Source: an uncultured Planctomycetales bacterium
GTDB lineage: Bacteria > Omnitrophota > Gorgyraeia > Zapsychrales > Fredricksoniimonadaceae
Reading direction: 5' to 3'
Length of the DNA stretch: 64,000 nt
NCBI GenBank assembly: GCA_964483785.1
Contig: CAZACW010000002.1
Coordinates: forward strand, 16,666 to 80,665
This document shows, one piece after another, positions 2,090 through 54,185 of the stretch. The translations under genes were made by a program, and so were the position numbers. Under the pieces are notes generated by a model that was given only the letters and a program-made list of their open reading frames with translations, did not search any database and was not told the DNA's origin. Every line of letters begins with the position of its first letter. The first letter of the stretch is position 1.

Positions 2090-2127
2090 TGGGTCCGATT
2101 GCAACACATTGAAAGGTCGCTTTAGTT

Positions 2128-2156
2128 TGTTCGCTCCCAAAAGGCGTGTTATAATT
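2128..2156 (+). promoter_or_regulatory. Sigma70-like promoter (TTGTTC, 17-nt spacer, TATAAT) upstream of the toxin-antitoxin-like pair
   Basis: A perfect -10 hexamer TATAAT lies 17 nt downstream of a TTGNNN -35-like hexamer. The small ORF starts about 25 nt downstream. Confidence 0.35.
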
Positions 2157-2181
2157 TAGATGTTTTGGAAAGGATGAGATA

Positions 2182-2277
2182 ATGGAATCGATTAGAGAAG
2201 TCATGCTGGCGAGCGAATCCGTCCTTAAAAAAGATTGGGATCTCTCCCAAGAAGATAAGGCGTGGCAAGATATATAA
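2182..2277 (+). CDS. 31-codon small ORF (MESIREVMLASESVLKKDWDLSQEDKAWQDI), a candidate antitoxin partner of the downstream PIN gene
   Basis: Promoter directly upstream. It ends 25 nt before the PIN start, the canonical antitoxin-then-toxin order. It is short for an antitoxin and no family is recognised. Confidence 0.25.
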   Translation: MESIREVMLASESVLKKDWDLSQEDKAWQDI

Positions 2278-2302
2278 GGGTCATTTTTGATTAAGGATCA
2301 GT

Positions 2303-2755
2303 GTGAATAAAGAAAAGCTTTATTTCGATACATCTGTTCCAAGCGCGTATTATGATAAACGTACTAAAGAACGCATGGAATTGACCAAAGAATTTTGGGG
2401 AAAATTGAAAACGTATGAGCTTTATGTTTCAACCCTTGTTCTTGATTAATTGAATCAAGCTGATCCAGCAAGTTTAAAAAAGAATCTATTAGGCCTCGTT
2501 AATAAATGTGAAGTTTTGGAATTAGATGGAGAAGTTGAAGATTTAGCTGAAAAGTATGTAAAAGCGGGCATTTTGCCGCAAAAATATTTTAATGATGCTT
2601 TGCATATCGCCGTAGCCGTTGTGAATGGTATCAAATTTCTTGTGAGTTGGAACTTTAAGCATTTTGTGAATGTCAAGACACGTCATATGGTTAATTTGAT
2701 CAACCATCAGGAAGGTTATGGAGTTATTGAAATTATTGCGCCACCTGAACTTTAA
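2303..2755 (+). pseudogene. PIN-domain (VapC-like) toxin gene interrupted by an in-frame TAA at 2447-2449
   Basis: The GTG at 2303 opens VNKEKLYFDTSVPSAYYDKRTKERMELTKEFWGKLKTYELYVSTLVLD, then a stop. It continues in the same frame from TTG 2450 as LNQADPASLKK...FNDALHIAVAVVNG...IEIIAPPEL. The combined length of about 150 aa is that of an intact PIN domain, including the N-terminal acidic D-T-S motif. Confidence 0.6.
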
Positions 2756-2769
2756 AAGGAGGGATAAAT

Positions 2770-2949
2770 ATGTTTAATATTAATAAAGCCATTAAAGATT
2801 CTGGTCTTTCAAAATTAGAAATCACGCGCTTACAGAAGGAAATCAAGAAAGATTATCCCCATGACTCAATGTTATATGAATTGCATATGATCAGAGCATT
2901 GAGAGCAAAGAAGCTAAGAAGCAGTGTGTCAATCGCACATAAGGCTTAA
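2770..2949 (+). CDS. Small hypothetical protein (59 aa)
   Basis: A strong SD (AAGGAGG) lies 6 nt upstream of the ATG. This ORF is below the ORF-track length cutoff. It ends 5 nt before the DUF2442 gene. Confidence 0.35.
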   Translation: MFNINKAIKDSGLSKLEITRLQKEIKKDYPHDSMLYELHMIRALRAKKLRSSVSIAHKA

Positions 2950-2954
2950 TTGGA

Positions 2955-3242
2955 ATGATGCTTTATATAACCGAAGCCAAATATCTTGAAGATTATAAGA
3001 TCCGAGTTGTTTTCAATGACGGAAAACAAGGTGTGGCTGATTTATTTGATGCCTTGCGCGGACCGGTTTTCATTCCCCTTAAAGACAAGAAATTATTTGC
3101 GCAGCTATGTGTCGATAAAGAAATGGAAACGATTGCGTGGCCCAATGGGGAGGATCTCGCTCCGGAATATGTTTATTTTAGGGCTTTTAAAGATGTTCCT
3201 GAATTGCAGAAGCAGTTTCAAGAATGGGGGTATAAAGATTAA
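2955..3242 (+). CDS. DUF2442-family small protein
   Basis: 95-aa product MMLYITEAKYLEDYKIRVVFNDGKQG...WPNGEDLAPEYVY, typical of DUF2442. Confidence 0.55.
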   Translation: MMLYITEAKYLEDYKIRVVFNDGKQGVADLFDALRGPVFIPLKDKKLFAQLCVDKEMETIAWPNGEDLAPEYVYFRAFKDVPELQKQFQEWGYKD

Positions 3243-3282
3243 AAATGCCACCTTTGATAAAACGATGGGGCAAGGCCGCCTT

Positions 3283-6200
3283 TTAATACCCCAAATTAGG
3301 CCCGAGCCATTTTTCGGCGGCTTCCTTGGTCATGTTTTTGCGGCGGGCGTAGTCTAAGACCTGGTCCTGGGCGATTTTGCCGATGGCAAAATATTTGGAC
3401 TGCGGATGGGCCAGGTAAAAGCCGCAGACCGCGGCGGTGGGATACATCGCGAAGCTTTCCGTCAGGGTGATGCCGGTGTTTTGGGTGGCATCCAAAAGCC
3501 TGAACAAGGTCTCTTTCTCCGTATGATCAGGGCAGGCCGGATAACCCGGCGCCGGGCGGATACTGCGGTATTGGCCCAGGAGGATCTGTTCTTCGGTCAA
3601 ATGCTCGTCCTTGGCAAATCCCCACAGATTTTTGCGCACCATCTCATGCATCAATTCCGCAAAGGCCTCAGCCAGGCGGTCTGACACGGCCTTGGCCATG
3701 ATGCTTTTATAATCATCGTGGTCATCTTCAAATGTTTTGACCAAGGCATCCAGGCCGACACCCGTGGTCACGGCAAAGGCGCCGATATAATCCTTTACTC
3801 CGGATGATTTCGGCGCAATATAATCCGCGTGGGACAAGAGGGGCTGGGCCTCGCTGACCTTGATCTGCTGGCGCAGATTATACAAGACATCCAGCACTTC
3901 ACGCCGGTCATCGTTGGTATACAGCTCAATATCATCATCGACGGAATTGGCCGGGAAAAACCCGACCACGGCATTGGCCCGCAGGAGTTTTTTCTTGATG
4001 ATTTCATCCAAAAGCAAGTTGGCATCGTTATACACCCGCAGGGCCTCGGCGCCCAGCACAGGGTCTTTGAGGATCTGCGGGAATTTGCCCTTCAATTCCC
4101 AGGTGATGAAAAAGGGCGACCAGTCGATCTTTTGGCGGATCAGATTCAGATCAAAACCGGCAAAGACCTTTAAGCCCAGGAAGGACGGTTTGGTGATCTG
4201 GACTTTTTTCCAGTCGGTCGTCAGGCCTTGTTTACGGGCCTCGGCAATGGGTACAAAATTTTTGACGGATTGACGGCTGGCATGTTCCTGGCGCAGACGC
4301 TCGAATTCAACCCTGGTTTTTTCCACCAGTTCTTTTTTCAGCCGCGGTTCCATCAAACTGCGGCAGGCGCCCACACAGCGGGAAGCGTCCTTGCTGTGGA
4401 TCACCGGATGCTGATACGCGGGCGCGATCTTGACTGCTGTATGCGCCGGCGAGGTGGTGGCCCCGCCGATCATCAGGGGCAGGGTAAAGCCCAAGCGCTG
4501 CATTTCACCGGCCACATGCACCATTTCATCCAGGGAAGGAGTGATCAGGCCTGAAAGGCCGACCACATCCGCCTTTTGGTGTTTGGCGGTTTCCAGGATT
4601 TTGGCGCAGGGGACCATCACGCCCAGATCGATGATTTTAAATCCGTTGCAGGCCAGCACAACACCAACGATGTTTTTGCCGATATCATGCACATCGCCCT
4701 TGACCGTGGCCAGTACAACGGTGCCCGCGACCTTTCCGCCAGGGGCGGATCCGCCTGCGGCGGAGGCTTCCTGGCCCTTCTCTTTTTCAATGTATGGGCT
4801 TAAATAAGCCACGGCCTTTTTCATCACCCGGGCAGACTTGACCACCTGGGGCAAAAACAGTTTGCCTGAACCGAACAGATCGCCGACCACATTCATCCCG
4901 GCCATCAAGGGCCCCTCGATCACATCCAGGGGGCGTTTGGATTGGCGCCTGGCCTCTTCGGTATCCGCTTCGATAAAATCCACAATGCCTTTGACCAAGG
5001 CATGGGAGAGCCTTTCCTGCACCGGCCAAGAGCGCCAGGCCACATCTTCTTCCTTTTTTTCGCCCTTGGATTTCACGTTTTGGCTAAACGCTACCAGCCG
5101 CTCCGTGGCATCAGCCCGGCGGTTCTGCAGAACATCCTCGATCAACTCCAGAAGATCGCGGGGGATCTCGGCATAGACGCTGATCATGCCGGCATTCACA
5201 ATGCCCATATCCATGCCGGCCTGGATGGCGTGATACAGAAAAACGGAATGCATGGCCTCGCGCACCGGATCATTGCCGCGGAAGGAAAAGGAGACATTGG
5301 ACACCCCGCCGGAAATCAAACAGCCTGGGCAGGCTTCCTTGATTTGGCGGACGGCCTCAAAATAATCCTTGGCGTAATTATTGTGCTCTTCGATGCCGGT
5401 GGCCACGGCAAAGATATTGGGATCAAAGATGATGTCCTGGGGCGCAAAGCCGATCTCCTGGGTGAGGATCTTATACGCGCGCCGGCAGATGGCCACACGC
5501 CGCTCGACGCTGTCTGCCTGGCCCTGCTCATCAAAGGCCATGACCACGGCCGCGGCCCCGTAATACAAGACCTTTTGCGCCTGTTCCTTGAAAGGCGCTT
5601 CGCCTTCCTTGAGGCTGATGGAATTGACGATGGATTTGCCCTGCGCGCATTTTAAGCCAGCCTCAATCACCGGCCATTTGGAAGAGTCGATCATCAGCGG
5701 CACGCGGGCGATATCCGGTTCGGAGGCGATGAGATTCAAGAATTTGGTCATGGCCTCGACGGAATTGAGCATGGCCTCATCCATGTTCACGTCAATGATC
5801 TGCGCGCCGTTGTCCACCTGCTGGCGGGCCACGGCCAGCGCCTCATCGAATTGTCCGGCGATGATCAGCCGGGCGAATTGCTTGGAGCCGGTGACATTGG
5901 TGCGCTCGCCCACATTGATAAAATTGCTGTCCTTGCGCACGAGCAGGGGCTCAAGACCGGAAAATGAGCTCAAAGGCGTGAGGGAAGGCCGCTTCCTGGG
6001 TTGAAGGCCCTTGACCGCCTCAGCCATGGCCTGGATATGCGCCGGTGTTGTGCCGCAGCAGCCGCCGAGAATATTGAGAAAGCGGCTTTCAGCGAATTCC
6101 CTGACAATGGCGGACATTTCCCCGGCTTGCAGATCATAATCGCCGAAAGCATTGGGAAGCCCGGCATTGGGATAACAGCTGATGAAGCAATCCGCGATCC

Positions 6201-6996
6201 TGGAGAGCTCCTCGATGTAGGGCCGCATTTCCTTGGGGCCCAGGGCGCAATTTAACCCGACGGCCAATGGTTTGGCATGCTTGATGGATATCCAGAAAGC
6301 CTCGGTGGTCTGGCCGGACAGGGTGCGGCCCGAGGCATCGGTGATGGTGCCGGAAATGATCAAGGGCAGGCGGGTGCCGATCTGATCGGAAACCGTTGCA
6401 TACGCATAAATCGCGGCCTTGGCATTGAGCGTGTCAAAAATGGTTTCAATCAGGATCAGATCAACCCCGCCCTCGATCAGGCCTTTGAGCTGTTCGCTGT
6501 ACGCCTCAACCAGTTGGTCAAAGGTGATGCCGCGCAAGGCCGGATTATTCACATCCGGCGAAATGGAGGCGGTGCGCGTGGTGGGGCCGAGGGCGCCGGC
6601 CACAAAGCGCGGTTTGGCAGGATCAGCCTTGGTCATTTGCCGGGCGGCTTCCTTGGCCAATTTGGCCGCGGCCTTATTCAGCTCATGGACCAATCCTTCC
6701 ATTTTATAATCTGCCATGCTGATGCGATTGCTGTTGAATGTATTGGTCTCAATGATGTCAGCGCCTGCCGCCAAATATTGACGGTGAATGTCCTGGATAA
6801 TGGCAGGCTGGGTCAGGACCAGAAGATCGTTATTGCCTTTCAGATCCACCGGCCAGTCCTTGAAACGATCGCCGCGGTATTGCTGTTCATTGAGCTTGTG
6901 TTTTTGCACCATGGTGCCCATGGCCCCGTCCAGTATCAGGACGCGCTCTTTGAGCAAGCTTTGAAGCGCTTCAAATTGTTTGGCCAGGGGGGTCAT
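3283..6996 (-). CDS. metH: Cobalamin-dependent methionine synthase (5-methyltetrahydrofolate-homocysteine methyltransferase)
   Basis: 1237-aa product with homocysteine-binding, pterin-binding, B12-binding and AdoMet-activation regions in MetH order. The N-terminus reads [10 protein letters not shown]. Confidence 0.95.
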
Positions 6997-7874
6997 GGGT
7001 TTAAAGTTTTGAGGATCACATCCACCGGATGGATTTTATTGAGCGTATAAAAATGCAGGCCCGGCGCCCCGCCGGATAAAAGCCCCTGGGCTTGTTCGAT
7101 GCAGAATCTGGTCCCTGCCTCGAGGGTTTTGGCGCGGTCCTCGGCGATGGGCTTAAAAATCGCATGGACCCTGTCCGGAATCGATGCCCCGCACAGGGCG
7201 CAGAAGCGCACCAGCCCGGGATAATCCGTGATCGGCAAAATCCCGGGGATAATGCGGGTCCCAACGCCTAATTTTTTCAAGCGCGCCACATAGTCGAAAT
7301 AATCCTGGTTATCGAAAAATAGCTGGGTGATGACAAAATCCGCGCCGTGGGCGATTTTATTTTTGAGATACTGGGCGTCCAAATTACGGTCAGGGCAGAG
7401 CAGATGGCCCTCGGGAAAACCCGCCACCCCGATATTGAAATCACTGCCGAAATGCTCCCGGATATAGGCCACCAATTCGAAACTAAAGTTAAAATGCTCC
7501 GGCCCCGGCTTCCAGTCGGGATTCTCCTTTGGGGGGTCTCCTCTTAGGGCCAGCACATTGCAGATCTTGCGCTGTTTCATCTCCTGCAAAATGCCCTTGA
7601 TCTCATCCCTGGTATGCATGACGCAGGTGATATGGGCCATGGAAGGCACGCGCAGGTCATTTTGAATGTGGTCTACAATGTCCAGGGTCTTGGCCCTGCT
7701 CCCACCGCCGGCGCCGTAGGTGCAGGAGATGAAATCCGGCTTCAAGGCGCAGAAATCCGGGACCATTTTCAGGAATTTCAAATGGCCTTCCTCGGTTTTC
7801 GGCGGGAAAAACTCAAAGGAAAAGGTCCGGCCTTTTTCCTTGAATATATTTTGGATTTTGGACATGGGGGTCAT
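6993..7874 (-). CDS. metF: 5,10-methylenetetrahydrofolate reductase
   Basis: 293-aa product with the MetF signature near its N-terminus ([10 protein letters not shown]). It has a 4-nt overlap with metH. Confidence 0.9.
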
Positions 7875-9253
7875 TATATCTTATTTTGCTTGCTTTGGGA
7901 GGCTAATTTTTGGTCAGCCCAGAGGCCCAGGGCGATTAAATAGAGAGGGGCCAAAGGCAGGGCGTAGCGGGTGAGGATAAAGAAGAAGGCAAAGAACAGG
8001 ATATAGAGAAGGATGAGCCATCGGATGAAGGAGGCCAGCATGGACCCTGATTTGGGAGGCGCAAACCATAATCTGATCCAGGCAGCCAAGGACAGCAGGG
8101 ACATCAGGAAGCGCAGGGCATTATTCAACAGCTTCATATCATAAATTTTCTCAAGCCATGCAGGATACTCGACAAAGCCGATCTTGGTGGATTCCCAAAA
8201 GAACATTTTCAAGCCTTCGAGGGCGGTCAGGACAAAATACTGAAAAGGATTGTGCAGGGCCTGCTGGACCGAGGCCTTAAGCAAGGCGGTATTCATGGCT
8301 TCGGGCGGCAGGTTTTGGCCGATCATTTCAGTATTTTTAGCGTAGCCTAATCGATCAGATTCCTGAAAGGACCAGAAAGCGCAATCCTGCGCGCTGAAGT
8401 GGCTGGCGCAAACCCCTTCCCCGGGCACATAGGCCAGGCCCGCCGCGAATCTTTGAGGGGTCAGGGGCTCGACCCTGCGTGCGGTACTGCCGTAAAGGGC
8501 CCAGGCGCCGCGGTTGGTGACAGCGTAATGGCCGTTGTATTTGAGATTTAATCCTTTATAGGCCGTGATTGGGACATAGTAAAAGGCAAGGCCGGCGGCC
8601 AGGCCGAGCAAAAGGGGGATGATATGAAAGGAGCGCTGTCTGAGCATATTGACCGACGAGACCACGGCCCAAATTAGCAGATAGGCCGGGCTGATGCATT
8701 CAAACACTGCCTTGACCAAGGTCGCGGCCAGGAGCATGAAGCCCAATAAGGCGCCGTAGGCAATTGACCTTGGGATATCGTTTTTCGTCACCGCTTTCCA
8801 GGCCGCGTGGCTAAAGAGGATGATGCCCAGGACCAAGGGAAACGCGGCGATTTCCGAATAGAGGCTGAAGGCCGCGTTATTAAGGGCAGGTGAAACGGCC
8901 AGATAGGCCAGCACCAGGGCACAGATGCCTTCGCGGACTTTCAAATGGCGCAGAATGAGATAGGTCAGAAGCTGGGTCAAGAACATCAGGACCATGCCGA
9001 AGATGGCCATGAACTGGACATAGGCCCAGCCAGTCACCTGTTCCAGATGCATGGCAATGGAGATCAAAAAGGGATACAAAGGCTCGCGATTGGGCCCGGT
9101 TTTAAAATAGGCGATCCATCCGTCTGTATAGAGCAATTTCCCCAGCTCTTGATAGCCGATGGCATCAAAGGCAAGGATCATCTTGGTAGCCAGGCTCAGA
9201 TAGGTCCAGTAGGCGATGGAGAGGATAAAAACTATGACAGTCGGCATTTGCAT
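7874..9253 (-). CDS. Polytopic membrane protein resembling the GT-C superfamily of glycosyltransferases (PMT/ArnT-like)
   Basis: 459 aa with about 11 predicted transmembrane segments and an N-terminal loop containing DGW..Y..GPNREPLYPFLI, which resembles GT39/GT83 loop motifs. Its TAA stop shares one nucleotide with the metF ATG. Confidence 0.4.
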   Translation of the reverse strand: MQMPTVIVFILSIAYWTYLSLATKMILAFDAIGYQELGKLLYTDGWIAYFKTGPNREPLYPFLISIAMHLEQVTGWAYVQFMAIFGMVLMFLTQLLTYLILRHLKVREGICALVLAYLAVSPALNNAAFSLYSEIAAFPLVLGIILFSHAAWKAVTKNDIPRSIAYGALLGFMLLAATLVKAVFECISPAYLLIWAVVSSVNMLRQRSFHIIPLLLGLAAGLAFYYVPITAYKGLNLKYNGHYAVTNRGAWALYGSTARRVEPLTPQRFAAGLAYVPGEGVCASHFSAQDCAFWSFQESDRLGYAKNTEMIGQNLPPEAMNTALLKASVQQALHNPFQYFVLTALEGLKMFFWESTKIGFVEYPAWLEKIYDMKLLNNALRFLMSLLSLAAWIRLWFAPPKSGSMLASFIRWLILLYILFFAFFFILTRYALPLAPLYLIALGLWADQKLASQSKQNKI

Positions 9254-9272
9254 ACAATTATTTTAATACCAA

Positions 9273-9299
9273 CCATCACAACCCCGGGGGTTGTGATGG
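9273..9299. repeat. 27-nt GC-rich near-palindrome CCATCACAACCCCGGGGGTTGTGATGG (copy 1)
   Basis: Two 13-nt arms that are exact reverse complements flank a single central nucleotide. Read directly from the sequence. Confidence 0.9.
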
Positions 9300-9387
9300 T
9301 GTCTGCATTGTTTGTATCATATCAATATCGGACTTTTTAGACAAGTAGGGGATCAATTATGTAAGTTTGACATAACGCCATCTGTCG

Positions 9388-9537
9388 GAATGCAAGAATA
9401 TGTTTTTTCACCGCGACGCGCCCCCCAACCCCCCAAACGCGGCGCGTCGGAGCTACAAAAGAGAACATTTGTAAGCAGCTCCTGTGCGCCTGGGGGGAGA
9501 GCGCATCGCCTTATCAAAAACATATTCTTGCATTCCT
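9388..9537. repeat. 150-nt unit bounded by a 16-nt inverted repeat (GGAATGCAAGAATATG ... CATATTCTTGCATTCC). It encloses a GC-rich hairpin (CCGCGACGCGCC ... GGCGCGTCGG) with a C-rich loop.
   Basis: Reverse-complement matches read directly from the sequence. It lies between palindrome copies 1 and 2. Confidence 0.8.
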
Positions 9538-9544
9538 TAAAAAA

Positions 9545-9571
9545 CCATCACAACCCCCGGGGTTGTGATGG
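9545..9571. repeat. 27-nt near-palindrome CCATCACAACCCCCGGGGTTGTGATGG (copy 2, exact reverse complement of copy 1)
   Basis: Direct sequence match. It is followed 28 nt later by the consensus promoter. Confidence 0.9.
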
Positions 9572-9598
9572 TGGGGCGTGTATAATTTTTTATTTATA

Positions 9599-9626
9599 TT
9601 GACATGTTAAAGGCCGCTCTTATAAT
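9599..9626 (+). promoter_or_regulatory. Consensus sigma70 promoter (TTGACA, 16-nt spacer, TATAAT) heading the island
   Basis: A perfect -35 and a perfect -10. The first plus-strand gene of the island begins about 20 nt downstream. Confidence 0.5.
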
Positions 9627-9647
9627 GTTCATATATTGAACATTGCC

Positions 9648-10205
9648 ATGAATCCTCCTCAAGACTCCTTAGACGAACGGGAATTTGAATTGGTCAATAT
9701 CGTAGGCGCCGAACTCGGTGCCAATCAACGGGTTTTGTCCAAGCAATTGGATATTTCCCTTGGCATGACCAATATGCTGATCCGCCGTTTGGTCTCCAAG
9801 GGCTATATCCGCATCCGGCAGTTAAACAAGAAAAAGACCCAGTATATCCTCACCCCCAAAGGCTTTGCCGAAAAATACCAAAAATCCATCCGTTATACCT
9901 TAAAAACCATCCGCTCCATCGGCCTGATCCGCAATCAGTTAAACATCGTCATCCAGCGTCTTTATCAGGACGGGGAAAGGGTCTTTTTTATCCTCGGCAG
10001 TTCAGACCTGGCGGAATTGGTGGAAATGTCCCTTAGACAGCCCCAATGGGAGGGCGTGCAATTTAGCCGCGTGGAGGCAATTTCCGGCCATCCCGAAGGG
10101 GTGATCTTAATTTGCAGGGAGCAGGTCGAGGCTGTACCGTCAACCCCGGGCCGCTATGTCGATTTACTCAAGGAGCTGGCCAGCCAAAACAGGGAAGGAA
10201 TATGA
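9648..10205 (+). CDS. Winged-helix (MarR-like) transcriptional regulator
   Basis: About 185-aa product. Its N-terminal LSKQLDISLGMTNMLIRRLVSKGYIRI segment has HTH/wing character. An alternative TTG start lies at 9636. Confidence 0.5.
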   Translation: MNPPQDSLDEREFELVNIVGAELGANQRVLSKQLDISLGMTNMLIRRLVSKGYIRIRQLNKKKTQYILTPKGFAEKYQKSIRYTLKTIRSIGLIRNQLNIVIQRLYQDGERVFFILGSSDLAELVEMSLRQPQWEGVQFSRVEAISGHPEGVILICREQVEAVPSTPGRYVDLLKELASQNREGI

Positions 10206-12274
10206 TGATGCCAAAATCCGTTCCGGTTTCCTTTGTCGATTTTTCGCACACCGGCAAGACCATTGACACCCGGTTTTTCCCGTTGGGTGTGGCCTATGTG
10301 GCGGCCTATGCCAAGGAGCTGTTTAAGGAGCTCATCGACGTGGCCATTTACAAATATCCCAATGAATATTCCGCTTATTTGGACCAGACCATCCCCCAGG
10401 TGGCCTGCTTTTCCAATTTTTCCTGGAATTTCCGGCTGGGCTATGAATACGCGCGCCAGATCAAATTAAAATCCCCGCAGTCGATCACGGTCTTCGGCGG
10501 CCCCAATTACGGCCACCTGCCCCAAGAGCAGGAACAATTCCTCAAAGACCATCCCTACATCGATTTTTACATCGTGGAAGAAGGCGAATTCACTTTCGCC
10601 GCCCTGCTTAAGGAATTGATCGCGCGTGATTTTAACATCGATGCGCTCCTGCAGGACCGCCCCGGCCTGCCGGGGATCCATTATTTCAAGAACGGCTCAT
10701 TTACGCGCAATGACACCCAGCCGCGCATTCAGGAGCTGTCCGTGATCCCCTCGCCCATCCTCAACGGCATGATGGACAAATTTATCGCTGAAGAGTATAT
10801 CCCCATGATCCAGACCACCCGGGGCTGTCCCTATTCCTGCACCTTCTGCCATGACGGCAATGTGTACCAGAATAAACTGAAGCGTTTCCCCACGTCGCGC
10901 TACCAGGAGGAGATTGAATATATCGCCCGGCGCACCAAGGTGCCGCATCTGATGATCACGGACTTGAATTTCGGGATCTTTGAGGAGGATTTTGAGACCG
11001 CCCAGTTTATCGCAGAGATCAAAAAGAAATACCAATGGCCGCAGACCGTGGATTTGACCGCGGCCAAGAACAACAAGGAGCGCATCGGCCGCATCGTCGA
11101 GCTTTTCGGCAACACCTATCTCATGGGCGCCTCGGTGCAGTCCACGGACCCCGAGGTCCTGACCGCCATCAAAAGGTCCAATCTGCCCTTTGAGGAATTG
11201 GTGAGGATGGCCAAGAAATCCGCCCAATTCGGGGGCAACAGCTATTCCGAGGTGATTCTCTGCCTGCCGGGCGATTCCAAAAGGGCACATTTTAAGTCGG
11301 TCCTGGATTTGATGGACGGGCACATGGATGAGGTGCGCATGTACCAGTTCATTTTGCTCGCCGGCACCGCCGGCGGCTCCAACGAGGCCAGGCTGAAATA
11401 CGGGTATAAGACCAAATGGCGGGCCTTGCCGCGCTGTTTCGGCAAATACAAGATCTTCGGCCGGGAATTTCCCATCGCGGAAATCCATGAGGTCTGCATC
11501 GAGCACAAGACCATGAGCCATCAGGATTATTTGGACTGCCGCAAATTAAACCTGATCGTCGAGATTTTCAACAACGGCAAGGTCTTCGGCGAATTGTTCA
11601 GGTTCTCCGATTATCTGGGCATGTCCCGGGCCACCATCATCCAGGAAATTTACAACCGCGCCGTGAAAGACCAGGGGGAGATGGGGAAAATTTTCAGGGA
11701 TTTCGAGGAGAGCGAGGAAAAGAGCTTTTTCCCGTCGCGCCAGGCCCTGGAAGATTTTATTGCTGTACCGGAAAATATCGACCGCTATTTAAGGGGCGAG
11801 ATCGGCATCAATCAGATCATGACCTTTCGCGGGGAGGCGCTGTTGAACCATTTTGACTATAACGCCCGGCTGATCTTTGATGTGGTGCGCGATGAGCTTA
11901 AAAAGACCAATCAGTGGGACGAGGTCAAGGCCCTGTATTTGGATGAGCTGTGCGCCTACATCCTGGCCTGCCGCGGCGATCTTTTGAGCATCGACAAGGA
12001 GATCGTGAAAACCTGCCATTTTGATTTCGTCAAACTGTACCTGGACAATTTCACGGCCAATCCGAAGGACGTGATGGTCCAGGAAGGCATCCAGATCATC
12101 ATCGGGCATTCGCCTGAGCGGCGCAGGGAAATCGAGGAGAATTTGAAATTATACGGGCGTTCCGGCGAGGGCCTGGGCCATTACATGCAGCGCGGGAATA
12201 TTTTCAGGCTTTACCGCGAGCCGCGCTACGCACACGCGCCCATGCTGAAGGCCCAAGGGGCCGAGGTCAATTAA
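10202..12274 (+). CDS. Cobalamin-binding (class B) radical-SAM enzyme, probable methyltransferase
   Basis: The N-terminal Rossmann-like B12-binding region is followed by a CxxxCxxC cluster (TTRGCPYSCTFCHDG). The product is about 690 aa. The start overlaps the regulator's stop. Confidence 0.7.
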   Translation: MMMPKSVPVSFVDFSHTGKTIDTRFFPLGVAYVAAYAKELFKELIDVAIYKYPNEYSAYLDQTIPQVACFSNFSWNFRLGYEYARQIKLKSPQSITVFGGPNYGHLPQEQEQFLKDHPYIDFYIVEEGEFTFAALLKELIARDFNIDALLQDRPGLPGIHYFKNGSFTRNDTQPRIQELSVIPSPILNGMMDKFIAEEYIPMIQTTRGCPYSCTFCHDGNVYQNKLKRFPTSRYQEEIEYIARRTKVPHLMITDLNFGIFEEDFETAQFIAEIKKKYQWPQTVDLTAAKNNKERIGRIVELFGNTYLMGASVQSTDPEVLTAIKRSNLPFEELVRMAKKSAQFGGNSYSEVILCLPGDSKRAHFKSVLDLMDGHMDEVRMYQFILLAGTAGGSNEARLKYGYKTKWRALPRCFGKYKIFGREFPIAEIHEVCIEHKTMSHQDYLDCRKLNLIVEIFNNGKVFGELFRFSDYLGMSRATIIQEIYNRAVKDQGEMGKIFRDFEESEEKSFFPSRQALEDFIAVPENIDRYLRGEIGINQIMTFRGEALLNHFDYNARLIFDVVRDELKKTNQWDEVKALYLDELCAYILACRGDLLSIDKEIVKTCHFDFVKLYLDNFTANPKDVMVQEGIQIIIGHSPERRREIEENLKLYGRSGEGLGHYMQRGNIFRLYREPRYAHAPMLKAQGAEVN

Positions 12275-13273: not shown

Positions 13274-13312
13274 GCGATGATTATGGGCATTTGTTTGGTT
13301 CTTTTTGCTTCT

Positions 13313-13408
13313 CATCGGGTGGCCGAGGGAGGGGTCTACCCGCCGCGCGCAGGCTTTTGCGAGCACGGCGGGGAAACCCGAGGCCAGGACCCGATGAGTT
13401 GCTGAACA
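13313..13408 (+). other. Intergenic stem-loop (CTCATCGGGT ... ACCCGATGAG) enclosing about 75 nt of GC-rich sequence
   Basis: A 10-bp perfect inverted repeat lies in the 166-nt gap between the two epimerase genes. Confidence 0.3.
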
Positions 13409-21084: not shown

Positions 21085-21141
21085 CCACCACAACCCCCGG
21101 GGTTGTGGTGGTAACCATCACAACCCCGGGGGTTGTGATGG
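21085..21141. repeat. Tandem pair of the 27-nt near-palindrome (copy 3 variant CCACCACAACCCCCGGGGTTGTGGTGG, copy 4 canonical). It is followed by the CATATTCTTGCATTCC motif.
   Basis: Direct sequence match. The variant copy carries compensating changes on both arms (T to C paired with A to G), so pairing is preserved. Confidence 0.9.
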
Positions 21142-21212
21142 TCACATATTCTTGCATTCCTTGAAGAATAGGGAATATGTCGAACAAGCAACAGTTTCTC
21201 AAGGAGGTTGAG

Positions 21213-50108: not shown

Positions 50109-50219
50109 TAAGGCGGGGTTGATTTAATTGTAGTACACTTTTTTTTAAATGTAAAAATATAATTCGCTTTTAAGTTGCGACCTTTTAAATTTCTTGTTTT
50201 TCTGTTAATATCAACGCCT

Positions 50220-52364
50220 ATGGTCCAAAATCAAAGTTTTCCGAAGTCGATTTATGTCGAGTTATTGACCCTTCGACTTTGGCTGGACAGCTTGGCCCCT
50301 CTCCTGCGGCGGCTCGGCCGGAAAAATCCTTCCTTAAAACCCTGTTGTTATGTTTTTGATGCCACCTGGCCGGGCTTGATGCTGGCCCGCTGGACCGCCA
50401 AGCAGGAGGGGTTTGTGGTCCAAAAATTGGATTTTCAGATCACGGATGTCCGGGATGAACAAGGCCGCTTCGCTTATTGGCGCGCGGCCCATCAGGACAT
50501 GATTGAAATCCAGCAGCTGATGCTGTCATCCGAAATATTTCATTCCTTCACCCGAGATTTAGATCCCGCTTCCAATGCGCGTTATTACCTGGCCAAGGTC
50601 CCGGTGTATATTTATGATTTTTACGGGCATGAAAAATATGCCCAGGCCTGGCACGTGGCGATGATGGCCCAGATTGCCGGATGGCACGGCCGCCGGCAGC
50701 ACCCGCCTGCGACGGAGTATCAACTGTTTATCATTGAACGTCCCTGGATGGATGTCCTTCGGCAATATCTGCGGTCCCATGGCGGGCATTTGGCATCGCT
50801 TGGCCCCGTGCAGTTAAGGCGCTGGGCATGGTCAAAGCTTTTTGCCAAATTTAAAAAATTAAATTTCCGGATGGCGGCCGGCCTGGTCCGGCGCAAAATT
50901 TTTGACTTCAAGCTCCGGCGCGGCCTGGCCCGGTCCAAGCCGTATTTTGCGCCGGAGAAAGCCAGGATCATGACGGAATTTTGCGGCCAGTTGAATTTCG
51001 ACGATCCTGTTTTACATAGCGATCTTTTTTTCTGCGATGGAAAAAACCTTTCCTATGAAGATTTGCTGGTGACCTTTAATCTGTCCAAATCACCCATCGA
51101 CGCTCAAAGATACGGGCTGTTAGAATCCCATCACCTGGCTGCCGTGGCCATGTCCCCGCAAGCCTCGGTGGTGGATCCGTCCCTGATCGAGGTTTTCCGT
51201 CCCCAGCGGCACAATAGCACCCTACCCTTGGAGGCGCAGGAGAGCAGTGCGGAATATCGGGTATTGCGGGGTTTGCGGGAAGATTATTGCCGGACCAAGG
51301 AGCAATGGTCCCAATTTTTTAAGCGTTATAATATCAAACTGCACAACAGCTGGATCAATTATGACCCTGCTCAAATGGCCATGGCCGAGGCCTTGGCTGA
51401 ATTAGGGGGGATTTCCTGCATTTACCAGCGTTCTTATGAGCCCCATCCCTGTCCCCAGCTTGCTGTCTGCACGGACATCATCTTCAGTTTTGCCCCGGTG
51501 AAATACGAGGCCATGCGTGCCAATTACGGCCGCTTCCGTTATCACGCGGCCGTGGGTTATGTGGGCGATTACCGTTTTGGGCCGTCTCAATCCATGGCCA
51601 TGGACCTGCGCCGTAAAATCCAGGCCCATGGGGCCCAACAGATCATTGCCTATTTCGACGAGAATACCATTGATGACGGCCGCTGGTATATGGGGCATAA
51701 ACTGTTGAGGGACAATTACCGCTTCTGGTTGGAACAATTATTGAAATTCCCTACCCTTGGCCTGATCTTTAAACCCAAGGTGCCCAGCACCCTGCCCCGT
51801 CGGCTTGGAGAAGTCCACGGGCTTTTGCAGGAAGCGGAAAAGACCGGACGTTGTTATGTGTTCAGGGAAGGCCAGATGCAGGGCCTTTACCCTCCGGCTG
51901 TGGCGGCCCTGGCTGCGGACATGGCCATCCACGATTCCATCATCTCCGGCACGGCGGGCATGGAATCCGCCTTGGCCGGCGTGCCGACCTTGATCATGGA
52001 CCTGGAAGGATGGCCTCCCAGCCCCTTGCATCAATTGGGCAAGGATGTTGTTTTCAAGGATTGGCCGCAGGCCTGGCAGGCCTGCCAAAATTATTTCAAG
52101 GATCCTAAAACCTACAGGCATATCGGGGATTGGTCATCCTATAAGCAGGAACTGGACCCCTATCAGGACGGGAAGGCCGTTGAACGTTTGAGTGAATGCC
52201 TGAAATGGATGCTGGAAGGCCTGCGCGCCGGCCGGCATCGGGACGCGGTGATGGATGAGGTCATGGAGCGATTTGCACAGAAGTGGGGGAAGGACAAGGT
52301 CCAATCAGGAGACCATCACAACCCCCGGGGTTGTGATGGTCCATCACAACCCCGGGGGTTGTGA
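50220..52364 (+). CDS. Large hypothetical protein with a GT-B-like C-terminal half. The C-terminal 20 codons are encoded by the palindromic repeat.
   Basis: The C-terminal ISGTAGMESALAGVPTL segment resembles the GT-B acceptor-domain Gly-rich/E/A-G-xP motif. The start is chosen at the first ATG outside the AT-rich region, with an alternative at 50175. The stop lies inside repeat copy 6. Confidence 0.45.
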   Translation: MVQNQSFPKSIYVELLTLRLWLDSLAPLLRRLGRKNPSLKPCCYVFDATWPGLMLARWTAKQEGFVVQKLDFQITDVRDEQGRFAYWRAAHQDMIEIQQLMLSSEIFHSFTRDLDPASNARYYLAKVPVYIYDFYGHEKYAQAWHVAMMAQIAGWHGRRQHPPATEYQLFIIERPWMDVLRQYLRSHGGHLASLGPVQLRRWAWSKLFAKFKKLNFRMAAGLVRRKIFDFKLRRGLARSKPYFAPEKARIMTEFCGQLNFDDPVLHSDLFFCDGKNLSYEDLLVTFNLSKSPIDAQRYGLLESHHLAAVAMSPQASVVDPSLIEVFRPQRHNSTLPLEAQESSAEYRVLRGLREDYCRTKEQWSQFFKRYNIKLHNSWINYDPAQMAMAEALAELGGISCIYQRSYEPHPCPQLAVCTDIIFSFAPVKYEAMRANYGRFRYHAAVGYVGDYRFGPSQSMAMDLRRKIQAHGAQQIIAYFDENTIDDGRWYMGHKLLRDNYRFWLEQLLKFPTLGLIFKPKVPSTLPRRLGEVHGLLQEAEKTGRCYVFREGQMQGLYPPAVAALAADMAIHDSIISGTAGMESALAGVPTLIMDLEGWPPSPLHQLGKDVVFKDWPQAWQACQNYFKDPKTYRHIGDWSSYKQELDPYQDGKAVERLSECLKWMLEGLRAGRHRDAVMDEVMERFAQKWGKDKVQSGDHHNPRGCDGPSQPRGL

Positions 52365-52377
52365 TGGTCTCCTGATC
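52303..52377. repeat. Tandem pair of the 27-nt near-palindrome (copies 5 and 6) nested inside a further inverted repeat (CAGGAGA ... TCTCCTG). The whole 75-nt stretch is one near-perfect palindrome.
   Basis: Direct sequence match. Copy 6 is the exact reverse complement of copy 5. Only the single central nucleotide breaks the overall symmetry. Confidence 0.9.
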
Positions 52378-52385
52378 AAAAACAT

Positions 52386-54185
52386 ATGGCGCAGATTTTT
52401 GTTATTCATGATCCTGCCTATTTCAAGGCCTCGGCCCTGGATTGTATCGTTTTGCCGACGGAGCAGGGCCTGGATGCATTATTGTCCAAGGGCCTGATTG
52501 GCCCCTTACAGGTTCCAGCTTATACCGAGAAAGAACGCTCGGCCTTTATCCAGGATTATACGGCCTTGATCGCCTCCCTAAATGCCCGTTTTAAGGACCA
52601 GTTTCTCTGGTGGGCCACGGACCTTTCTTCCAAAAACAGCTATGTTTGTCCTGTCCCTGACCTGGTCCAGGAATTGCTGATGATTGAAAGAAGTCTTTCA
52701 GCCTGTCCGGATCAGCCCTTGTTGATTGCAGGCCCTTCCATCGCCATCGAGCCGTCCTTGTCCAAACTCCTGGCCAAATGCAACCGCAGTCTGGTTTGGC
52801 CAAAGGCTGACTGGGAAAGACAAAAGCTCATGGCCCTTGGCGCGGCCCGGTCCTTGATAAGGCTATTGGTGAGGGCTGTGCGTTTTTATGCCAGATCGTT
52901 CTTGTCCCGCAGGGCCTTGTCCGAAACAGCGGGCCGCTGGCTTGACCCTCAAAAAAATTTTTACGTGATCAAGACCTTTTCCTATCCCAGCTCCTGGGAC
53001 AAAGAAGGCGCTTACACGGACGCGTTTTTCGGCCCCTTGCCGAAACATCTTGCTGCATCCAACCAGGTGCTGATTTTAAGTTACCATTGGCATTGTTTTG
53101 GGGAATTTATAAAGCGCCTCAAGCAGGAAACGGCCTGGAAGATCCTTCCGGTGGAATTCTTTATCAATGGCGGTGATGTTTTCCGCGCCGTGATCAGGAT
53201 TTTAAGTTTCAGAATTGAGCTCAAGGAGCCGGTCTTGTTCAAGGACCTGGATGTGACGGATCTCATCCGTTTCGAGTTGGCCAGGACCCTCAACGGCATC
53301 CAGATCTTCCAGCTTTTGCATTACGATGCCCTTCGTCATCTCATCCGGCAGGTGCCGCTGAAGGATTTTCTCATGACCTTTGAGAACAATCCATGGGAGA
53401 GGATGTGCCTGATGGCCTTGCGCAAGCACAGCCCGTCGACCAAGCTTTTGGGTTACCAGCATTCCGTGGTGCCCCAGGCGGCCTTGAATATGTTTGTCCA
53501 TCCTAATGAAAAGAACATCGTGCCGCTGCCGGACAGGATCCTGACAACCGGCGAGCTGTCCCGCGGCATTCTCAGGGCATACGGGGATTACGGGCAGGTG
53601 CCCATTCTCAGCAGCTGCGCCCTGCGTTATGAATATTTATTTGCCGCCGGGCCGAAGGCGCGCTCTAAATCCCAGGGGCATCTTTTGCTGGTGTTAGACG
53701 GGGTTGACCAGACGTTTCAGATGCTGCAGTATGTGTTAAAAGAAATCAGAGGGGCAGAGGGCTGCCGGTTGAGGATCAGGTGCCACCCGGCGCTGCCATG
53801 GTCTTTGCTGACAAGGAAACACCCCATGGACATGGCTTGTCTGTCCCAGGTGGAAATCTCCAAGGAGAGCCTGGCCCAAGACCTGGAGTGGGCCGACGTG
53901 CTGATGTACTGGCAAAGCGCGGTTGTGCTGGAAGCTGTCAGCCGGGGGATCCCGGCTGTCAATTTCAGGCCTGAAGGCCTGTTAAGCTATGATCCATTGT
54001 TTCTGACCGATGCCTTTCAATGGACGGTCACGCCGCAGGAGAGGCTCTTGGCCGCCCTCAAGGCCGTCGAGGCCATGGATGACCGGGAATTCCGGCGCAG
54101 AGCCGATGCGGCCTCGGCCTGGGTGCGCAGTTATTTCCATCCCGTGACCCCTCAAAGCCTGGCCTTATTTGAAATTGACGGGTAG
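52386..54185 (+). CDS. Large hypothetical protein (599 aa), possibly GT-B-like
   Basis: The C-terminal VLEAVSRGIPAVNF segment resembles a GT-B motif. It starts 19 nt after the repeat pair. Confidence 0.35.
   Translation: MAQIFVIHDPAYFKASALDCIVLPTEQGLDALLSKGLIGPLQVPAYTEKERSAFIQDYTALIASLNARFKDQFLWWATDLSSKNSYVCPVPDLVQELLMIERSLSACPDQPLLIAGPSIAIEPSLSKLLAKCNRSLVWPKADWERQKLMALGAARSLIRLLVRAVRFYARSFLSRRALSETAGRWLDPQKNFYVIKTFSYPSSWDKEGAYTDAFFGPLPKHLAASNQVLILSYHWHCFGEFIKRLKQETAWKILPVEFFINGGDVFRAVIRILSFRIELKEPVLFKDLDVTDLIRFELARTLNGIQIFQLLHYDALRHLIRQVPLKDFLMTFENNPWERMCLMALRKHSPSTKLLGYQHSVVPQAALNMFVHPNEKNIVPLPDRILTTGELSRGILRAYGDYGQVPILSSCALRYEYLFAAGPKARSKSQGHLLLVLDGVDQTFQMLQYVLKEIRGAEGCRLRIRCHPALPWSLLTRKHPMDMACLSQVEISKESLAQDLEWADVLMYWQSAVVLEAVSRGIPAVNFRPEGLLSYDPLFLTDAFQWTVTPQERLLAALKAVEAMDDREFRRRADAASAWVRSYFHPVTPQSLALFEIDG

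Follow-up and report, generated by a model that had tools for sequence, protein, structure and literature searches.

The 394-nt spacer at positions 9254 to 9647 of the window (the whole 64-kb stretch of DNA that was analyzed) is probably a divergent promoter region that has been enlarged by small genome-private hairpin repeats, in part REP/BIME-like and in part MITE-like. Its "highly structured" appearance looks to be a consequence of the insertion of these repeats between and beside two back-to-back promoters. Comparison with four orthologous loci from Omnitrophota-like metagenome genomes, whose proteins are ~60% identical, divided the sequence into two classes. The conserved class comprises the regulator promoter, the 21-bp operator palindrome, and the extended -10 promoter and leader of the membrane-protein/metF/metH operon, while the private class comprises both 27-nt palindromes, the 150-nt rod-like hairpin, and the A/T-rich tail motif (Table 1). 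In the model that we favor, the native functional parts would be the consensus sigma-70 promoter of the winged-helix regulator gene, with the conserved palindrome lying over its -10 box and start site, and the extended -10 promoter of the metF/metH operon with its short leader. The inserted parts would be two copies of a GC-centred palindrome of the REP/BIME kind and a MITE- or ERIC/Correia-like rod whose terminal inverted repeats are perfect over 21 nt; both kinds have the tail motif in common with palindrome pairs at 21.1 and 52.3 kb. This dissection parts regulatory signal (the consensus promoter and the conserved operator) from padding in a glycan locus of an uncultured phylum.

The repeats, hairpins, and 12/12 promoter described in the original prediction were all present, within ~1 base and far above chance, and the flanking genes agreed with it, the minus strand carrying the genes for a membrane protein, MTHFR, and MetH and the plus strand a winged-helix gene. 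The region had been read as a composite control element; the promoter proved genuine and the repeat composite, whereas the proposed structured RNA and multi-operator hub did not hold up. Lack of conservation, which had been named as evidence against that reading, was observed in the four orthologous loci for every part of the region except the two promoters.

Table 1. Features of the spacer, its flanking genes, and the related repeats elsewhere in the window
Feature	Position	Strand	Details
MetH	3283-6996	-	Third in operon
MTHFR	6993-7874	-	Second in operon
Membrane-protein gene, 459 aa	7874-9253	-	First operon gene; ORF list, Pfam and NCBIfam scans
Proximal leader of membrane-protein gene	9254-9268	-	TATTAAAATAATTGT; relatives have TATTAAAAGATA; conserved
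Palindrome copy 1	9269-9302 (27-mer 9273-9299, centre G)	none	13-bp hairpin, -21.9 kcal/mol, in minus-strand leader
Membrane-protein/metF/metH promoter	9316-9344	-	TTGTCT, 17-nt spacer, TG-n-TATGAT (extended -10); predicted start site ~9309
Unique spacer	9345-9386	none	No repeat; no blastn-short match to relatives' loci
150-nt rod-like hairpin	9387-9536	none	21-nt perfect terminal inverted repeats GGAATGCAAGAATATGTTTTT / AAAAACATATTCTTGCATTCC
Tail motif ATCAAAAACATATTCTTGCATTCCTTAAAAAA	9513-9544	+	Overlaps right arm of 150-nt element
Palindrome copy 2	9541-9575 (27-mer 9545-9571, centre C)	none	Exact reverse complement of copy 1
A/T-rich stretch	9576-9598	+	Directly upstream of -35 box
Sigma-70-type promoter, winged-helix gene	9599-9626	+	TTGACA, 16-nt spacer, TATAAT, 12/12; predicted start site ~9633
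Candidate palindromic operator AATGTTCA-TATAT-TGAACATT	9624-9644	none	21 bp, 8-nt arms
Winged-helix regulator gene, 185 aa	9648-10205	+	HTH_24 domain
Palindrome pair B + tail fragment ACATATTCTTGCATTCCTTGAAGAA	21085-21168 (21085-21111, 21115-21141)	none	Fold -53 kcal/mol
Palindrome pair C + tail fragment ATCAAAAACATAT	52304-52387	none	Perfect 73-nt palindrome, 35-bp stem, -73.9 kcal/mol

The membrane-protein gene and MTHFR are divergent from the glycan locus in all four relatives (L002, L004, L012, and L013), in which the spacers measure 104, 50, 420, and 63 nt, respectively; the spacer studied here is 394 nt long, compared to 50 to 100 nt in two of the relatives. The alignment that the original prediction had called for left the structure-forming parts without counterparts and both promoters conserved, and blastn-short searches against the relatives' loci revealed no similarity for the central 250 nt. 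The repeats are absent from the relatives, in which the promoters and the operator are conserved, and copy 1 is inserted into a conserved leader. A decayed coding remnant in the spacer was considered and rejected, tblastn with the relatives' intervening genes yielding nothing below E = 0.06. No relative above 60% protein identity was present in the databases. The 459-aa membrane protein matched no Pfam or NCBIfam model; its homologues are hypothetical proteins only, some of them named Omnitrophota, and the best non-self match is 60% identical.

The regulator promoter is a 12/12 match and has no equal in the 64 kb, where 0.02 would be expected by chance. Its description as a textbook promoter is borne out by the orthologous loci, in which TTGAC and TATAATGTTCA..ATTGAAC are invariant; in the alignment of L004, L012, and L013, TTGAC and TATAAT are likewise invariant. 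Position alone suggests that the A/T-rich stretch upstream of the -35 box may be an UP-element, and its counterpart in the relatives is A/T-rich too and not alignable. The candidate operator covers the start site as well as the end of the -10 box, and it stops 3 nt short of the ATG. TATAATGTTCA and ATTGAAC show no variation among four genomes with proteins that are only 54 to 70% identical; the exact operator pattern is present in L004, L012, L013, and L014 and occurs once in the window. This palindrome does not appear in the original prediction. Among viral contigs, the operator pattern gave 18 matches, all in unrelated phage promoters with other operators and none next to the regulator gene. 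The winged-helix protein resembles a MarR family EPS-associated regulator, with a score below the family cutoff (49.8 versus 88 bits); it is 54 to 70% identical to orthologues encoded behind the same promoter, and searches under either start codon retrieved no database record of the protein itself. Hexamers, spacing, conservation across orthologues, an overlapping palindrome, and an adjacent regulator gene, which together characterize a sigma-70 promoter with a candidate autoregulatory operator, are all present. The regulator probably controls its own expression through the palindrome at 9624-9644, which is most likely its binding site and would give negative autoregulation.

The promoter of the divergent operon is also conserved, its core TTGATAWGATA being kept in L002, L004, and L012 and represented by TAAGATA in L013. 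The leader is conserved with it, and the window alone has ~38 extra nt, made up of copy 1 with GCAGAC and TGG. The site corresponds to a 41-column gap in all relatives, and removal of the 38 nt makes the alignment collinear. Copy 1 would place a stable hairpin near the 5' end of the metF/metH mRNA, where it could alter stability or translation. Copy 2 abuts the A/T-rich upstream portion of the plus-strand promoter. Read on the minus strand, its hairpin (-21.9 to -22.4 kcal/mol) precedes TTTTTT, an arrangement that the terminator scan picked up as shaped like an intrinsic terminator; with this U-run, it would be expected to terminate minus-strand transcription coming from the right.

Both palindromes had been noted originally and were recovered at 9273-9299 and 9545-9571. 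The 27-mer, CCATCACAACCCC[G/C]GGGGTTGTGATGG, forms a 13-bp stem of about -22 kcal/mol. It occurs six times in the window versus 0.00 expected from 100 shuffles, and four of these copies abut in twos at 21085/21115 and 52313/52341. Every one of the three pairs combines a C-centred with a G-centred copy, the two being exact reverse complements. Five of the six copies are identical over 27 to 29 nt; the sixth, the first copy of pair B, carries a compensated double change (T4C/A24G) that preserves the stem. All six are intergenic or at the 3' end of a gene, and one site lies between divergent genes. Pair B separates a transketolase-C gene from a methyltransferase gene on the same strand and contains no promoter or terminator of note. 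At pair C, the upstream 729-aa ORF spans both copies and stops within the second, and the tail fragment ATCAAAAACATAT extends into the ATG of the next gene. The abutting pairs would form 23- to 35-bp stems in the polycistronic glycan mRNA, which, as has been described for REP, BIME, and Correia elements, could block exonucleases or be cut by RNase III.

In the ~75 kb of this genome that was read, the six copies all fall within 9.2 to 52.4 kb, in the glycan locus or at its edge, with none in an additional 11 kb of flank (4.8 kb left and 6.5 kb right). This distribution could be expected if the palindrome were an operator at which an island regulator binds all six copies and coordinates the glycan array, as in the multi-operator hub put forward originally. 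The centre of copy 2, ~75 nt upstream of the predicted plus-strand start site, would suit an activator, and copy 1, just downstream of the minus-strand start site, would suit a repressor. However, the operators of one regulon normally vary, and the identity of five copies together with the compensated change in the sixth is the behavior of hairpin repeats, not of an operator set. At two of the three sites, the copies abut as a pair within an operon and have no promoter in the vicinity, and one of these pairs overlaps the end of an ORF; the relatives retain both promoters and the regulator without such a palindrome. The operator-like palindrome that is conserved at the regulator promoter has another sequence and a single occurrence in the window. 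We consider it unlikely that the 27-mers constitute a regulon.

The 150-nt element consists of 21-nt arms (9387-9407 and 9516-9536) around a GC-rich, imperfectly self-complementary core of 108 nt. Its arms had been described as a 16-nt inverted repeat; the repeat is present, one base off, and is perfect over 21 nt. The inner GC hairpin was also among the inverted repeats that we found. The element folds with -75.9 kcal/mol on the plus strand and -90.3 kcal/mol on the minus strand (z about -10), and the core by itself has a z of -4.5. The ORFs inside it are low-complexity read-throughs, and no target-site duplication was detected, the left flank (...CTGTC) and the right flank (TTAAA...) sharing no direct repeat. 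The window holds one full copy and tail fragments at 21144 and 52375. These fragments lie directly 3' of the palindrome pairs (21144-21168 and 52375-52387); ACATATTCTTGCATTCCTT recurs at 21144 with a 92% match over 25 nt, and ATCAAAAACATAT recurs at 52375-52387, in agreement with recurrences reported originally near 21142 and 52370. The A/T-rich tail motif accompanies the palindromes at three of three sites, which upholds the view of the repeat as composite. The tail motif contains TTGCAT, and its reading as a sigma-54 or sigma-70 promoter was discarded, since the spacings are wrong by eye and the scan gave no match. For the palindrome, an integron attC reading was dismissed on inspection, RYYYAAC/GTTRRRY cores being absent.

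Folding of the whole region against shuffles gave z values of about -12 on both strands. Strong folding of this order (z of -10 to -12), next to genes of methionine and B12 metabolism, which are often associated with riboswitches, would be consistent with a structured RNA, either a riboswitch-like leader of metF/metH or of the island or a free small RNA from the 150-nt hairpin, and as minus-strand RNA this element folds better by 14 kcal/mol, having four G.U pairs where the plus strand has C.A mismatches. But the excess of G.U pairs (four versus one) is not significant, and what folds is a simple rod of inverted repeats with no multi-helix junction. The predicted start sites flank the 150-nt hairpin, which is upstream of both and thus in neither mRNA leader, and the promoter scan found no site inside it scoring at least 9/12. 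The relatives run the same operons with spacers of 50 to 104 nt that lack such structure, and the structured parts have no counterpart there. The riboswitch search recommended in the original prediction returned no matching family on either strand: Rfam 15 gave nothing at the gathering score over the whole window, and at E values up to 10, positions 9150-9750 drew noise on both strands, the best being E = 0.77, with eukaryotic snoRNA and miRNA models. A structured RNA is accordingly improbable. The folding is strong because inverted repeats are present, and a z of about -12 in a control region is explicable by selfish or structural hairpin repeats, with no regulatory RNA involved.

Inverted repeats directly upstream of a glycan locus (perfect over 21 nt and 97% over 32 nt) could also bound an invertible segment, as in phase-variation switches of the surface-polysaccharide kind. 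The candidate segments are the 108-nt core and the 243 nt between the palindromes, and the latter encloses the minus-strand promoter of the metF operon. The core, however, is nearly self-complementary and has no promoter, so its flipping would change almost nothing. The other palindrome pairs abut, 1 to 3 nt apart, and are therefore not switches; there is no recombinase among the ORFs scanned, and the promoter orientation here matches the fixed arrangement in the relatives. An invertible switch is very unlikely. We assign a still lower probability, close to nil, to the palindromes and inverted repeats being artefacts of assembly. The sequence is a metagenome assembly, and a Logan contig assembled independently breaks off within palindrome copy 1, yet the end of that contig carries the same 27-mer with the proper flank, graph breaks at repeats are expected, and the three intergenic contexts that contain the six copies are clean, their neighboring ORFs being intact. 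Palindromes that break short-read assemblies in this way could serve as strain markers.

In public collections, the family of private repeats was not traced beyond this genome. The exact 27-nt palindrome gave no match in species-representative genomes, JGI metagenomes, or viral contigs, collections that do not include this genome; a relaxed core gave four single matches in unrelated taxa, consistent with a rough estimate of chance. The 21-mer arm gave two unrelated single matches in metagenomes, one coding and one upstream of an unrelated gene, which we judged to be chance, and blastn of the private parts against plasmids and phages gave no match. A synthetic query of palindrome-encoded peptides, aimed at further copies within annotated genes, produced 180 word-sharing candidates, none of which scored, a result that is not evidence of absence.

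It is conceivable, if rather doubtful, that the palindromes, the 150-nt rod, and the shared tail ATCAAAAACATATTCTTGCATTCCTT belong to one undescribed "hairpin plus tail" family with no tag and no target-site duplication. Such a family may be restricted to the glycan locus in an Omnitrophota lineage, where it could punctuate a 40-kb polycistronic mRNA or act as recombination points. If this were true, the 23- to 35-bp stems would be RNase III or exonuclease signals, or the repeats a set of recombination points remodelling the glycan locus. Consistent with this, the genes found between the regulator and the membrane-protein gene in the relatives are missing exactly at the two inverted palindromes. 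If the repeats were dispersed genome-wide, they would be REP-like elements without a GTAG/CGTC tag in an Omnitrophota-like genome, which bears on the origin of such elements without RAYT.

Among known systems, hairpin-type MITEs include the Neisseria Correia element and enterobacterial ERIC, and Correia elements duplicate TA at their target. The 150-nt element resembles both in size, ~20-nt terminal inverted repeats, rod-like fold, lack of coding capacity, and intergenic location beside promoters. As in MITEs, terminal inverted repeats bound a short non-coding element; unlike Correia elements, it lacks a target-site duplication, and it has no known parent insertion sequence; apart from a single full copy, two tail fragments were seen. 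A review of small bacterial repeats is available (PMC3184786).

REPs are 20- to 40-bp palindromes, often inverted dimers, that lie downstream of ORFs and are species-specific (PMC3733652, PMC2817692); REP/BIME/REPIN elements are described from Enterobacteria, Pseudomonas, and Stenotrophomonas (PMC3733652, PMC2817692, PMC3116915). The window units (27 to 31 nt) are likewise GC-rich and extragenic, and as inverted dimers they are able to fold together into a single larger hairpin. Most are located within operons, downstream of ORFs; the units are species-specific and keep their stem through a compensated change. Set against the palindromic-unit criterion of PMC3733652 (20 to 40 bp, GC-rich stem-loop), they agree in unit size and stem, in extragenic location, and in alternating orientation. 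The ~75 kb that was read contains 6 copies, REPs usually numbering >100 across a genome. Unlike REPs, they have a perfect stem and an accompanying A/T-rich tail motif, and unlike most catalogued REPs they carry no unpaired GTAG or CGTC tag, with no GTAG, CTAC, CGTC, or GACG beside the stem of any of the six copies. One site lies between divergent genes, an atypical setting, since most REPs are reported where the adjoining genes are unidirectional or convergent (PMC3733652). No Y1_Tnp match indicative of a RAYT was found among 20 window ORFs scanned, and ten of these, seven of the ORFs of 171 to 238 aa among them, showed no transposase. The native part of the spacer invites comparison with autoregulated MarR/winged-helix promoters. 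Its regulator differs from that class in scoring below the EPS-associated MarR cutoff and in having an uncharacterised C-terminal half, and the operator is a candidate; the likeness lies in a palindrome with 8-nt arms over the -10 box and start site, followed directly by the winged-helix gene and conserved across orthologues.

The original prediction, made from the sequence alone, described the spacer accurately. Both 27-mer palindromes lie within it, as does the GC hairpin, which is placed inside an inner inverted repeat and includes pairing between a C run and a G run (inverted repeats I3 and I7). The inner repeat itself was found, with perfect arms of 21 nt rather than the 16 nt proposed and a position shifted by 1 base. 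The TTGACA-16-TATAAT promoter is the one site in the 64 kb to score 12/12 (0.02 expected), and the recurring motifs were recovered, ACATATTCTTGCATTCCTT at 21144 and ATCAAAAACATAT at 52375 (repeat families D9 and D14). Folding of the spacer region gave a z score of about -12 on both strands, a value that follows directly and arithmetically from the nesting of inverted repeats. The promoter is genuine and conserved, with an operator candidate that had been overlooked; all other structure comes from hairpin repeats that are private to this genome and inserted into a divergent promoter region.

Features of the spacer and related repeats (window positions)
Feature	Position	Strand	Remarks
Spacer	9254-9647		intergenic, divergent flanking genes
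Membrane-protein gene, then MTHFR and MetH genes		minus	membrane protein of 459 aa, no family match
Winged-helix gene		plus	185 aa
27-mer palindrome, copies 1 and 2	9273, 9545
27-mer palindrome, abutting pairs	21085/21115, 52313/52341
Extended -10 promoter of membrane-protein operon	9344 to 9316	minus	promoter scan
Predicted minus-strand start site	about 9309	minus
Inner inverted repeat	9387-9407 + 9516-9536		21 nt, perfect
150-nt element	9387-9536
Tail	9513-9544		ATCAAAAACATATTCTTGCATTCCTTAAAAAA
TTGACA-16-TATAAT promoter	9599-9626	plus
Candidate operator	9624-9644
Predicted plus-strand start site	about 9633	plus

We aligned the 80 nt that precede the winged-helix gene in four genomes. The order TTGAC, TATAATGTTCA, ATTGAAC is invariant, with the ATG at a fixed short distance, even though the winged-helix proteins of the aligned loci are only 54-70% identical; the promoter is therefore genuine. 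A conserved palindrome, AATGTTCA-N5-TGAACATT, covers the end of the -10 box and the predicted start site; its exact pattern occurs in every relative with a winged-helix gene that was fetched (L004, L012, L013, and L014) and once in the window. Given what is generally known of MarR and winged-helix regulators, the position and symmetry of this candidate fit an autoregulatory operator of the downstream regulator.

On the opposite strand, TTGATAAGATAGTCAATATTAAAAGATA is common to the relatives ahead of the membrane-protein gene, and its counterpart in the window reads TTGATATGATACAAACAAT, 38 nt, and TATTAAAATAAT. The raw alignment has a 41-column gap opposite the palindrome in all relatives, and the window leader becomes collinear with theirs once GCAGAC, the palindrome, and TGG are deleted. 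On this sequence evidence, the predicted extended -10 promoter is native, and copy 1 has apparently been inserted into the leader, a few bases past the predicted start site.

The membrane protein is identical to database entry P0001, and its next-best homologues are just 59-60% identical; the few that are named are Omnitrophota or Omnitrophica MAG proteins. An assembly artefact is unlikely, because the independent Logan assembly of SRR12313480 has the same junction: it carries the same membrane-protein gene, with a contig end inside copy 1. Among the four relatives whose genomic contexts were compared (L002, L004, L012, and L013), all keep the membrane-protein gene and MTHFR divergent from a glycan-biosynthesis locus, across spacers of 104, 50, 420, and 63 nt, respectively. 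The winged-helix gene of L004, L012, and L013 lies two to five genes deeper in the locus, behind methyltransferase-glycosyltransferase and carbamoyltransferase genes, and the epimerase genes that come after it are those also seen in the window; the fetched flank of L002 ended before any winged-helix gene. Since the intervening genes have neither a homologue in the window nor a detectable remnant in the spacer, the junction is specific to this genome. Positions 9345-9598 and both palindromes are without counterpart in the relatives.

Several other features of these loci were observed. In L012 (2102-3581 and 3582-4003), the carbamoyltransferase gene beside the membrane-protein gene is split into three ORFs of 235, 119, and 119 aa, and the spacer measures 420 nt; here the same junction is undergoing its own decay in a separate lineage. 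A B12-binding radical SAM methyltransferase-like gene (window 10112-12274; KedN5-like, below the family cut-off) separates the winged-helix and epimerase genes in this genome only and is missing from L004, L012, and L013. Between the DUF6159 gene and metH, an islet at 2090-3283 with 36% GC (versus about 54% in the remaining window) holds four or five very small ORFs in a toxin-antitoxin-like layout, one of which a stop interrupts near 2449. The left edge of the islet is where Logan contig L011 ends. In L011 (150-215), at 4.8 kb to the left of where the window begins, two TTACTTGCA..TGCAAGTAA-type palindromes precede a canonical MarR gene and are likely a MarR operator pair; they have only a CTTGCA core in common with the tail, probably by coincidence.

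The 27-mer, CCATCACAACCCC(G/C)GGGGTTGTGATGG, has six copies in the window (0.00 expected). Each pair has C at the centre of one member and G at the centre of the other, so the members are exact reverse complements. At 21.1 and 52.3 kb, the members of each pair adjoin with a gap of 1-3 nt and fold into single stems of 23 bp (-53 kcal/mol) and 35 bp (-73.9 kcal/mol), respectively; both pairs lie between same-strand genes, with no U-run and no promoter nearby, and the one at 52.3 kb has taken in the stop codon of the ORF before it. That 729-aa ORF (50175-52364; no Pfam match) runs through both palindromes and terminates at a TGA in the second one, so that the repeat encodes its ~17 C-terminal residues (GDHHNPRGCDGPSQPRGL). 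The proposal that the palindromes form a multi-operator hub is improbable: the copies are near-identical, the sole variant (21085) carries a compensated, stem-preserving double change (T4C and A24G), the abutting pairs sit inside an operon, and the palindromes are missing from relatives in which the regulator and both promoters are retained. Copies 1 and 2 in the spacer are 243 nt apart. We give still less credence to an invertible switch bounded by the inverted repeats of the spacer: the segment inside the inner repeat is nearly symmetric and without a promoter, and the other palindrome pairs enclose nothing.

Beyond the window, flanks of 4.8 kb on the left and 6.5 kb on the right contain no further copies. 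Searches of 185,579 species-representative genomes, the JGI metagenome contigs, and IMG/VR did not recover the palindrome, and nothing matched in plasmid and phage collections. A relaxed 18-base core had four single matches, in Bradyrhizobium, Acidobacteria, and Actinomycetota, consistent with chance by a rough estimate, and the 21-mer arm had two, both unrelated. Unrelated inverted repeats occur in other spacers. One at 13311-13398, in the 166 nt between two epimerase genes, is nested and GC rich (outer arms 10 nt, perfect; inner arms 17 nt, 82% complementary), with a sequence unrelated to the 27-mer; in the glycan locus of a 60%-identical relative (L002, 2305-2784), three unrelated long ones (arms 35, 33, and 21 nt) fill a 480-nt spacer. 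Insertion of hairpins may be common in the glycan-locus spacers of this lineage.

The 150-nt element folds as one rod (-75.9 kcal/mol on the plus strand, -90.3 kcal/mol on the minus strand; z about -10) around an imperfectly self-complementary 108-nt core, and the promoter scan found no promoter-like site in it. The contiguous tail holds both fragments found after the other two palindrome pairs, and the idea of a composite repeat is supported, because a GC-rich hairpin precedes the tail at all three sites. A structured RNA or riboswitch was also proposed. As minus-strand RNA the rod is more stable by 14 kcal/mol, and its four G.U pairs there, against one on the plus strand, are a weak hint in that direction; the plus strand has C.A mismatches in their place, and the numbers are too small for significance. 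Rfam returned nothing at gathering score and eukaryotic noise alone at E up to 10, conservation is lacking, and the topology is that of a plain rod. The promoter positions also count against it: the predicted start sites leave the rod and copy 2 in the untranscribed gap of the divergent promoters, which excludes both as mRNA leaders, and any minus-strand promoter upstream of the element would run into the terminator made up of palindrome and U-run. We consider this reading very unlikely.

Copy 1, when transcribed, would form a hairpin of -21.9 kcal/mol close to the 5' end of the metF/metH mRNA; known 5' stem-loops suggest by analogy that it could make the message more stable or influence initiation. 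Copy 2 is followed by UUUUUU on the minus strand and scores as an intrinsic terminator in the terminator scan; it could keep antisense transcription out of the metF operon.

REP/BIME elements are 20-40-bp palindromes, often found as inverted dimers downstream of ORFs, and are probably transcribed and act as RNA hairpins (PMC3733652; PMC2817692). The palindromes described here agree in size, extragenic location, and inverted-dimer arrangement, and abutting pairs between same-strand genes, one with an absorbed stop codon, are a typical REP/BIME setting. The palindromes lack the GTAG/CGTC tag, and no RAYT was found among the 20 window ORFs scanned. The 150-nt rod resembles a MITE in its terminal repeats and size but has only one full copy and, as read from its flanks, no target-site duplication. 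From these agreements and differences, and without claiming membership in the RAYT-REP family, we therefore class the palindromes and the rod as working like REP/BIME elements and hairpin MITEs.
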